A program made the translations under genes and the position numbers. From Reclinomonas americana ATCC 50394 (taxonomy: Eukaryota), in NCBI GenBank assembly GCA_048213135.1, contig PS015053.1, positions 33,682 to 84,577 of the forward strand: 50,896 bases of DNA, given 5' to 3'. Below the pieces are notes generated by a model that ran no database searches, was not told where the DNA came from, and was given only the letters and a program-made list of their open reading frames with translations. This document shows positions 4,301-6,819 of the stretch, piece after piece. Numbering within the stretch: position 1 is the first letter of the stretch; every line of letters begins with the position of its first letter.

Positions 4301-6819
4301 CCGTGTGCCGGATGTGGATTTGAGCAAGGACGAGCGGATGGTGCTGGACAGACTGCATGTTGCGTGTGTATGTCCACAACACCTCAGCATTGCAGATTGC
4401 TTGACTCAGCCATGGCTTTGCCATAACACCTGATGCTTGGAACAGCGGTGCAACAAGAGGAAGATACTGGTGACGGCATTCGGCATCATGGCGCCCATTG
4501 TGAAGACATCCGCAGCCTTGCATCATCAGCGGGTTATGTTTGAACTCGCCTGCAAGGAGTGCGGCATCCCTTCGTCGGGAGCTGGCTCTCCATCGTCCGC
4601 AGTAATGGAAGCATTCAGCAAGAGACTTGGCAGGGCAGTCAAGAATACACGCTCCAACACACCCAAGTCTGTTGAAGGAGTGCTCCAGAGCATGAGCAAC
4701 ATCATCGAGGTGAGCATCTATCTGTTCTGTCTATCCCACGCGGCTAGAAAGTGAGCCAACAACGATGCATGTGCAACTCTGCAGAAGAGTGAACTGCGCG
4801 GTGCTACTCTGGCAGATGCCATTGAGAGACCGCTTATTGTGGTGGATGAACGTGGCCATTCTGAGGTACGCCAACTTTCTGTGTGCGCTATTTGCATTTC
4901 TTGGTTTGTGTCAACTCACTTGCTTTGTTCACGATGTCGGTCGTGCTGCAGGAGTCATGGAGGATGTTGGGGATGAAGCAGAAGAAAAACGACCATCTCC
5001 TGCCATTCATTGTGCAGGCCGCGCAGGCCCTGCGTGAGTGTCCTGGCTTTCGGACGATTCTGATTCGAGACGGCTGTCTCTCCGAGGAGGAGATCGCACG
5101 GGCCGTCGAGTGGTGCAGTGAGAGAGGTTCGATGGCATCCTTGTGTTGTACTGTATGCATGGCGTCAGGACTGACAAGCGAGATGCAGCTCTACTGGAGG
5201 CGACGGTGCTGAAGAAAGAAGAGATGAAGGGGGAAGAGGAGGAGGAGGAGGAGGAGGAACAGGAGGAACAGGAGGATGATTCAAGGGTCGGCAGGGAGGA
5301 GGATGAGGACGACGGCATGGATGAAGCTGACAGGAGGAAGGTATGACCATGGATGATCGGTCATGTGCACGTTGTGGCAACATCTCATCTGTACATGCAC
5401 AGCGACGAGGGAAAGGTCCTGCAACAGTAAGCAAGGACGAGCAACTGATGCTGGCAAGGCTGCTTGTTGAGTGTGCTTGCAGTCATGTCATTCCTTGGTA
5501 TTCGACTGGCTGATTGGATATTCATTGCACCACCCATGTGTTTCATGCGAGAGCAGTGCTGCAACAGGAAGAAGATGCTGGTGACTACATTTGGAATCAT
5601 GGCGCCGTGTGTGATGGAATCCACTGTCCGGCATCATCAGCGCGTTCTTGTTGAACTCGCCTGCAAGGAGTGTGGCATCCCTTCATCGAAAGCAGGACGG
5701 CTTTCGTCGGCAGTCATTAACTCATTCGGCAAGTGTCTTGGGCATGTCGTCCGAACGGCACGCAGGAAGACGCCCAAGTCTGTTGAAGGAGTGCTCCAGA
5801 TGACGAGCGACTTCATTGAGGTGAGCATCGATCATCTTCTTCCGCAAGTTTATCAATGATGAGCGCTAACATATGTGCCACTATGCAGGAGAGTGAACTG
5901 TGCGATTCGGCTCTGGCGGATGCGATTGAGAGGCCGCTGTTTGTGTTGGATGAACGTGGTCATTCGGAGGTGTGTGGCATCCCCGCGCTCAGTGTGCTCT
6001 GCGCACGCGTCGTTTCTCAAGTTCTGTGCTCCGGGATTCGGATGTCAGGAGTCGTCACGCTTGGCGAGGGCGCAGCACAGCAACAAACGGAGTCTTTTCC
6101 TGCCGTTCGTCACGCAGGCTGTTGAGGCTCTTCGCAACTGTCCAGGCCTGCTGGCCACTCTGCTTCGAGACAGTTGTCTGTCTGAGGCTGAGATTACTCG
6201 TGCCGTCAAGTGGTGCCGTGAACGAGGTTTGGTTGCGTGACACACATTTTTTTTTGCAAATTGTGAATACTCTGACAAACAGGCGACAGCTGTGAGGGAG
6301 ATGGAGACGGCGAAGAGAGAGGAGAAGAGGGAGGAAGAGCAGAAGGATGATGATGACGGCAGCGAGAATGAGGACGATGACAGGGAGAGAAGCAGGAGAC
6401 ACAAGGTACGCCCGTCGCTGCTATCTATGAACGTGAATGATGGGTGCATTTCAAACGGCATTGTTCGCAATCGCAGCGCCACGAAAATGGTCTTGCAAAT
6501 TTGGGCATCAACGAGCAACTGGTGCTCGCGAGACTACATGTTGCGTGTTGCTGTTGCCTCTCAGCTCGGCTCCTCTCTTCCACTCACCCACCGCGTATAC
6601 GAACAGGGCTGCAACAGGAAGGTGGTGCTGGTGAAGGCATTCGGCCTCATGGCACCCGTGGTACTGAGAGCCACTGTCCACCATCATCAGCGCGCTCTCT
6701 TCCAGCTTGCCTGTGACGAATGCGGAGTGCCCTCAAAGGGACTGGGCAGTCCTTCATTCGCAGTCATGTCAACATTTGTCAAGAGTCTTGCCGATAGTAC
6801 CAAGACTGCACGCAACAGG
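1310..6819 (+). CDS. Repeat-domain family paralogue A (4 domain copies; 3' end lost in gap)
   Basis: ATG 1310; exons 1310-1646, 2491-2583, 2666-2715, 2796-2900, 2984-3037 (GDASGDDEPAPPKKKKKK), then modules whose 264-nt core exons are 3294-3557, 4446-4709, 5557-5820 and 6607-gap. GT-AG introns with consistent phases; homologous to B, C and D. Runs into N gap 6820-7045. Confidence 0.8.
1880..2460. repeat. (CTT)n / (CT)n microsatellite-rich tract in intron 1 of paralogue A
   Basis: Direct inspection; similar tracts flank the gaps in intron 1 of B and D. Confidence 0.95.

Follow-up and report, generated by a model that had tools for sequence, protein, structure and literature searches.

A ten-codon segment that diverges at about the neutral rate in the putatively all-helical repeat modules of Reclinomonas americana

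A stretch of 50,896 nucleotides from a scaffold of the eukaryote Reclinomonas americana ATCC 50394 (contig PS015053.1, positions 33,682 to 84,577; hereafter the window) contains four tandem genes, A to D, which are assembled from repeated modules of about 175 residues (exons a to c, with linker exons in addition). Every module carries a ten-codon segment that varies strongly between copies, and the amino-acid-changing divergence of this segment, pooled over module types, equals that of the neutral yardsticks available in the same genes. The reading that we favor, and for which we consider the case about evenly balanced, is that the segment represents an exposed, nearly unconstrained face of a helix in an orphan repeat family, with a rate of change close to neutral. 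Within a predicted all-helical repeat module, it would make up the outward, net-basic face of a long alpha-helix along its C-terminal half. The inner-face positions (L61, V/A/T65, A/T/S68, and R69) would be held in place, positions 63, 66, 67, and 70 would accept almost any residue, and positive selection, if any, would be limited to one or two sites (column 63). Judged from its sequences, the module family as a whole appears to be a previously undescribed all-helical orphan that is subject to purifying selection.

The modules and their variable segment

With the peptides of one module as queries, tblastn located three kinds of exon in the window, all on the forward strand: exon a (88 codons) in 18 copies, and exons b (27 codons) and c (59 codons) in 17 copies each. 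The copies are arranged as four tandem intron-rich genes, with four modules each in A and D and five each in B and C:

3294..6819, forward strand: gene A module array, types 1-2-3-5, 3' end lost in a run of N
9395..14451, forward strand: gene B module array, types 1-2-3-4-5
18394..23453, forward strand: gene C module array, types 1-2-3-4-5
40741..45514, forward strand: gene D module array, types 1-2-3-5

The five module types were defined in a tree of the coding sequence built without the variable patches, with a support of 99-100 percent for types 1-3 and for B4 together with C4. A4 clusters with type 5 in this tree, and type 4 is present in B and C and missing from A and D. In each of the 17 complete modules the reading frames are open, the exons keep their lengths, and the acceptors are AG. 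By these properties, by their splice borders, and by the purifying selection acting on them, the modules are real coding units, as exemplified by module A3:

5557..5820, forward strand: exon a of A3, 88 codons, AG/GT borders and open frame
5889..5969, forward strand: exon b of A3, 27 codons, preceded by a 68-nt intron
6049..6225, forward strand: exon c of A3, 59 codons, preceded by a 79-nt intron
5821-5888 and 5970-6048: introns 1 and 2 of A3

The variable segment occupies columns 62-71 of the exon a alignment. A first-pass annotation, which covered ten modules, had described it as a stretch of constant length, and the addition of A4, B1, B4, C1, C2, C4, D1, and D5 bears out this description: exactly ten codons separate F-G-K-x-L from T-P-K-S in all 18 modules, and no length change was found. 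The arginine reported at segment position 8 is indeed present in 18 of 18 copies and encoded by CGC every time, and position 4 is restricted, as had been noticed, to alanine (eight copies), valine (nine copies), and threonine (one copy). The range 5728-5769 given earlier for A3 comprises the segment plus four flanking codons (GKCL). The individual segments are located as follows:

3477..3506, forward strand: A1 variable segment
4629..4658, forward strand: A2 variable segment
5740..5769, forward strand: A3 variable segment, 10 codons, GHVVRTARRK
6790..6819, forward strand: A4 variable segment, type 5, module cut by a run of N
9578..9607, forward strand: B1 variable segment
10801..10830, forward strand: B2 variable segment, outlier in type 2, nearest segments of type 3
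11878..11907, forward strand: B3 variable segment, CLFVKNARYK
12929..12958, forward strand: B4 variable segment
13981..14010, forward strand: B5 variable segment
18577..18606, forward strand: C1 variable segment
19790..19819, forward strand: C2 variable segment
20877..20906, forward strand: C3 variable segment, GLTVRGTRSK
21935..21964, forward strand: C4 variable segment
22988..23017, forward strand: C5 variable segment, outlier in type 5
40915..40944, forward strand: D1 variable segment
42921..42950, forward strand: D2 variable segment
44008..44037, forward strand: D3 variable segment, GFAVESARTK
45050..45079, forward strand: D5 variable segment

When windows of 10 residues were scanned over exons a-c, the segment was the second most variable (mean entropy 1.98), behind a patch in exon c (2.24) and ahead of the next window (1.32). 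This patch corresponds to the second variable stretch that had been proposed to follow the residues ES at the start of exon c; it exists, and it carries indels:

6055..6099, forward strand: second variable patch of A3, exon c residues 3-17, indels between modules, low model confidence

Divergence of the segment from introns and synonymous sites

According to the first-pass annotation, the segment diverges faster than the adjacent introns in each module, a claim illustrated by a comparison of A3 (5728-5769) with D3 (43996-44037). A recount reproduces the hand counts exactly: 12 of 42 nucleotides and 7 of 14 amino acids differ in this stretch, whereas the remainder of the exon differs at 6 of 74 amino acids and the next intron at 4 of 68 nucleotides. 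The comparison fell on the module type with the strongest contrast between segment and introns. Expressed as mean pairwise nucleotide divergence, the segment and introns 1 and 2 together reach 0.39 and 0.14, respectively, in type 3, 0.34 and 0.23 in type 2, 0.28 and 0.16 in type 5, 0.22 and 0.24 in type 1, and 0.10 and 0.23 in type 4. The excess in type 2 is driven by B2 and that in type 5 by C5. The claim thus holds for the type-3 modules, B2, and C5, but not for types 1 and 4. In a scan statistic, the clustering of at least 12 of the 74 differences between A3 and D3 in any 42-nt window of the 667 nt has a probability of p=0.087, and over the six type-3 pairs p ranges from 0.06 to 0.21.

Rates were pooled over eight phylogenetically independent within-type pairs. 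The proportions of nonsynonymous (pN) and synonymous (pS) differences are 0.241 and 0.276 in the segment and 0.091 and 0.251 in the rest of the exons, and for the introns the count is 467 differences in 2035 aligned sites (0.229). The pooled amino-acid-changing divergence of the segment is therefore equal to both neutral yardsticks, the pS of the remaining exon sequence (Fisher p=0.63) and the introns (p=0.39). Within type 3, the synonymous divergence of the segment (0.43) accompanies a nonsynonymous divergence of 0.39. The introns of this type are a biased yardstick, because they are less diverged (0.14) than the synonymous sites elsewhere in the same exons (0.29; p=4.7e-5); either these very short introns are constrained or they have been favored by conversion.

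Predicted structure of the module

Exon a was folded alone by AlphaFold2 from an alignment restricted to its 18 paralogous sequences, and exon c was folded separately. The exon a model (mean predicted local distance difference test score, pLDDT, 86; predicted template modeling score, pTM, 0.71) contains six helices, which span residues 4-18, 21-26, 28-38, 43-46, 51-71, and 76-87. The segment lies in the fifth of these, predicted with a pLDDT of about 89, and T-P-K-S forms the turn that leads into the last helix:

5707..5769, forward strand: predicted long helix of A3, residues 51-71, C-terminal half formed by the segment (AlphaFold2)

The entropy of residues 62-71 is periodic at 100 degrees (permutation p=0.015), a signal that fades in wider windows (p=0.06 for residues 55-71 and 0.31 for 51-71), and the most variable positions, 63, 66, 67, and 70, share one face of the predicted helix. 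Counted by eye, the net charge of the segment ranges from 0 to +4 across the 18 copies and is never acidic, and exon a of A3 contains 14 lysine or arginine against 6 aspartate or glutamate residues. By the AlphaFold2 helix, the net charge, and the periodicity, the earlier proposal of a basic helix with one variable face would appear to be correct. Exon c is also predicted to be helical, and the pLDDT of its variable patch (52-60) fits a flexible stretch.

H27, C36, and C39 of exon a and C31 of exon c are invariant across the modules, and C2 and H26 of exon a are nearly so. This pattern hints that the histidine and the three cysteines form a putative metal-binding site that joins exons a and c:

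5635-5637: invariant H27 of A3
5662-5664: invariant C36 of A3
5671-5673: invariant C39 of A3
6139-6141: invariant C31 of exon c of A3

Gene conversion between the tandem paralogs

In sliding windows of 120 nt the tandem paralogs are mosaics, in which blocks of high and low similarity alternate and the nearest partner changes. The divergence of A3 and C3 is 0.03-0.07 over alignment columns 721-1020 and 0.22-0.26 over columns 481-600; that of B3 and D3 is 0.04-0.06 over columns 121-240 and 0.24-0.32 over columns 781-1000; and that of A3 and B3 is 0.07-0.09 over columns 481-720 and 0.43 beyond column 1081. The conversion tracts among genes A-D measure roughly 100-400 nt, and the four genes show the concerted evolution of tandem paralogs.

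The nearest partner of A3 switches near the segment, with C3 to its left and B3 and D3 to its right. The segment therefore lies at tract ends, and its divergence is deeper than that of either flank. That tracts end here may be due to chance, to dense mismatches that block the extension of a heteroduplex, or to selection against homogenization of the patch. If the segment is a face free to vary, the contrast between A3 and D3 would have three causes: gene conversion between the tandem genes would have homogenized the flanks; tracts that tend to end at the type-3 segment would have preserved its older divergence, leaving synonymous sites as diverged as nonsynonymous ones; and the short type-3 introns, being less diverged than synonymous sites, would have enlarged the difference.

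Tests of selection and alternative explanations

Selection was tested with a GY94-type likelihood written for this analysis, with branch lengths fixed; the tests rest on 18 copies among which recombination is present. The ratio of nonsynonymous to synonymous rates (dN/dS, omega) is 0.30 for the rest of the module. On the global tree, the omega of the segment is 1.19 (p=0.135 against 1), and it rises to 1.43 when the segment is given its own synonymous rate (p=0.148). A tree of the flanking 38 codons yields 1.26 (p=0.053), and with the synonymous rate (alpha) freed on the exon a and flank trees the estimates are 1.44 and 1.42 (p=0.13 and 0.15). A site test that allows for local synonymous rates finds the nonsynonymous rate (beta) above alpha in 6 of 174 codons and below it in 62 of 174 (p<0.1). 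Column 68 is the sole segment codon that passes this test (p=0.03); the four most variable positions of the segment (63, 66, 67, and 70) all go unflagged. The strongest site overall is column 21, which lies outside the segment (alpha 0.03, beta 4.4, p=0.0004). This codon, situated between the first two predicted helices (5617-5619 in exon a of A3), is occupied by 8 different residues in 17 copies; its signal in the site test with local dS is stronger than that of any segment codon, and it has a posterior of 0.974 in the M2a-type model described below.

Several results weigh against a segment that is simply free to vary. All point estimates of its omega exceed 1 (1.19-1.44), despite the invariant arginine and three constrained positions, and a tree based on exon a only gives 1.33 (p=0.017). 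A comparison of M1a- and M2a-type models under constant dS prefers an additional class with an omega of 3.0 (3.4 percent of sites, p=7.7e-7), in which column 63 has a posterior of 0.995. Furthermore, the four type-3 segments stay distinct (9-14 of 30 nt) despite flanks that are homogenized to 3-9 percent on one side or the other, which is not obviously explained by chance alone. Finally, the exposure of the variable face, on which the reading depends, is inferred from a prediction for exon a only, made from an alignment of paralogs.

The estimate on the exon a tree and the class with an omega of 3.0 that includes column 63 are what would be expected from the foremost alternative, which we regard as possible yet doubtful: diversity-enhancing selection on a helix face that contacts a ligand (nucleic acid or protein) in a module-specific manner, with removal of conversions that homogenize the segment. 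It would also be in line with an omega of 2.40 at codons 63, 66, 67, and 70 relative to the gene-wide dS (p=1.5e-7; sites picked post hoc), with the entropy periodicity, which suits one helical face, with type-3 conversion tracts that end at the segment, and with the never net acidic character of the segment in an exon as basic as that of A3. However, measured against their own dS the same four codons have a ratio of 1.06, as their alpha of 2.17 differs from 1 (likelihood ratio test p=0.037), and in the eight within-type pairs their pN of 0.40 is matched by a pS of 0.39. The site test with local rates singles out column 68 instead of any of these codons, the segments of types 1 and 4 are no more diverged than the introns, and no DNA-binding family or fold was matched (see below). 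Single-tree site models are unreliable under recombination and yield false positives. Because gene conversion is pervasive in these genes, the M1a/M2a test is unreliable here, and conversion confounds both site tests. Moreover, the columns put in the class with an omega of 3.0 at a posterior above 0.8 are 21, 63, 124, and 126, that is, one of the ten segment codons is included. The claim of diversifying selection on the segment made in the first-pass annotation is thus weakly supported: an omega above 1, the local tree, and column 63 speak for it, but the face codons show no excess once local synonymous rates are taken into account.

We consider it unlikely that the variation is second-hand, the segment having been overwritten by short conversion patches from other module types or from unsampled genomic copies. 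Both synonymous and nonsynonymous differences would then be inflated relative to the module's own tree, and the four variable codons indeed have a synonymous rate 2.17 times the gene mean. Some segments also have neighbors that cross types: B2 is nearest to A3, D3, and B3, B3 is nearest to A2 and B2, and the neighbors of C5 include C3. In the 3' half of the segment B2 agrees with D3, and the flank of B2 still reads TPRS as is typical of type 2. However, a clean donor was not found among the 18 copies, since the segment closest to those of type 3, B2, and C5 differs at 9-10 of 30 nt. The type signal is likewise kept, with a segment distance of 0.485 between and 0.299 within types, and tracts of at most 30 nt would be required.

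A more far-reaching proposal, to which we give little credence, is that the modules are large recognition units of a new class, all-helical and bearing Cys and His. In these, the outward face of helix 51-71 formed by residues 60, 63, 66, 67, and 70 would set a module-specific target, either nucleic acid or protein, and selection would purge conversions that span the segment. A local mutational hot spot that raises all substitution types over 30 bases is very improbable: alpha and beta are both raised at columns 63, 66, 67, and 70, but column 69 has no substitution of either type, rates are low at columns 65 and 68, and types 1 and 4 show no excess.

Searches for related families and folds

In Pfam, hmmscan found nothing consistent at permissive thresholds (E<=10 for the A3 exons, E<=5 for the 18 exon a and 17 exon c sequences). 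The BEN domain profile, which we take to be PF10523, matched neither the A3 exons at E<=10 nor any of the 18 exon a and 17 exon c sequences at E<=5, and the module exons had no Pfam match to zf-C2H2 or helix-turn-helix (HTH) profiles. The zinc-finger-like matches that were obtained, to zf_Tbcl_2 and zf-Mss51, involved single members (E 0.12-0.2), and H27, C36, and C39 do not form the C-x2-4-C ... H-x3-5-H pattern of C2H2 units. Foldseek searches with the single-exon fragments gave a best E of 2.7 with TM<=0.39 for the exon a model and of 7.1 for the exon c model, and over PDB and viral structures nothing fell below E=2.3. A sequence profile search of PDB had a single match (E=0.075). The ESM Atlas contained no usable match to the module, a word-index search among longer proteins had no match to exon a, a scan of metagenome contigs produced 113 pattern matches of which 0 were confirmed, and Rfam gave 0 matches at the gathering threshold. 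In a full-text literature search, three module peptides appeared in no paper. The first-pass annotation had interpreted the segments as a modular code for reading DNA, possibly shaped by an arms race; this interpretation finds no counterpart in a Pfam match to BEN, C2H2 zinc-finger, or HTH profiles or in a fold match of the single-exon models, and a recognition code in the segments, drawn by analogy, is speculative.

A profile search of 1.84 billion protein representatives yielded two weak matches, P0001 and P0002, the latter being the weaker one (E=4.6e-4). P0001 is a predicted protein of 488 residues with five repeats. A motif that spans the segment and the turn, F-x-K ... V ... R ... P-[KR]-S-[VI]-[DE], is common to P0001 and the modules; it measures about 35-50 residues, and its spacing is identical in both. 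The likeness is weak (4.5-15.4 bits per repeat, hhalign probability 55 percent) and stops at this motif, the rest of the module being unmatched. Unlike in the module segments, the equivalent stretch of P0001 is nearly constant among its own five repeats.

Gene structure and surroundings

Intron lengths range from 59 to 89 nt among the complete modules. On splice sites called from comparative evidence, donors are GT throughout, except for five modules in which intron 2 starts with GC; the frame and the exon borders are kept in these:

from 13169: GC-start intron 2 of B4
from 14231: GC-start intron 2 of B5
from 22179: GC-start intron 2 of C4
from 23236: GC-start intron 2 of C5
from 45298: GC-start intron 2 of D5

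As worked out by eye, exon c is followed at its 3' side by an acidic linker exon and then by a short exon with an L-L-V end. Upstream of each module array lies a conserved proline-/serine-rich region of low complexity (1060-1717, 7309-7823, 16644-17318, and 39024-39558), which, as seen in stop-to-stop frames, is probably the first exon of the respective gene. No signal-peptide-like hydrophobic stretch was seen by eye in these upstream regions.

The window contains 4603 N spread over 16 runs, many of which adjoin repeats. Long polypurine/polypyrimidine and dinucleotide microsatellites, such as GGAGA x 147 and CT x 71, are found at 1897-2340, 27134-27511, 32117-32818, and 46367-47168. Genes on the opposite strand lie between C and D and beyond D:

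30947-31330, reverse strand: AAA_11 helicase fragment
34486-34830, reverse strand: 3'-5' exonuclease domain
45881-46237, reverse strand: Na/Ca exchanger domain

The helicase fragment had no match in the word-index search among longer proteins, and the lineage may therefore be poorly sampled.

Significance and comparison with known systems

Should the patch truly determine specificity, the modules would represent a new modular recognition scaffold without a relative in the databases, and also a case of selection that shapes the ends of conversion tracts. As it stands, the finding serves chiefly as a warning: where tandem paralogs exchange sequence, young flanks around an old patch can make a short stretch of exon look as though it were under diversifying selection when it is set against the adjacent intron. 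The genes are worth annotating as a seemingly orphan, multi-module family under purifying selection, with invariant His/Cys residues and acidic linkers.

C2H2 zinc-finger arrays, such as those of the KRAB-ZNF proteins and PRDM9, have fast-evolving DNA-contact residues in units of about 28 residues. The genes described here resemble them in their tandem modules, in the variable helix positions within a stretch of fixed length, and in the conversion among tandem paralogs. They differ in that the C2H2 motif and a zf-C2H2 match in Pfam are missing, that a module comprises about 175-235 residues instead of 28, and that dN does not robustly exceed dS. TALE, PPR, and PUF proteins consist of long arrays of helical units of about 33-36 residues, with specificity residues at fixed positions. 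The modules would share with these the all-helical repeats, as predicted, and a few fixed positions that vary between otherwise similar units, but they form four to five large units split by acidic linkers and match them in neither sequence nor fold. Like the BEN domain, the module is predicted to be small, all-helical, and equipped with a basic helix, whereas it has no Pfam BEN or fold match.

Variable patches that escape homogenization are also found in the peptide-binding codons of the major histocompatibility complex (MHC) and in the solvent-exposed leucine-rich repeat residues of nucleotide-binding leucine-rich repeat receptor (NLR) clusters of plants, where dN is clearly higher than dS. 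In the modules dN and dS are about equal at the patch, and the protein family is unrelated to either; what they have in common with MHC and NLR families is mosaic conversion among tandem paralogs in which a short patch stays diverged.

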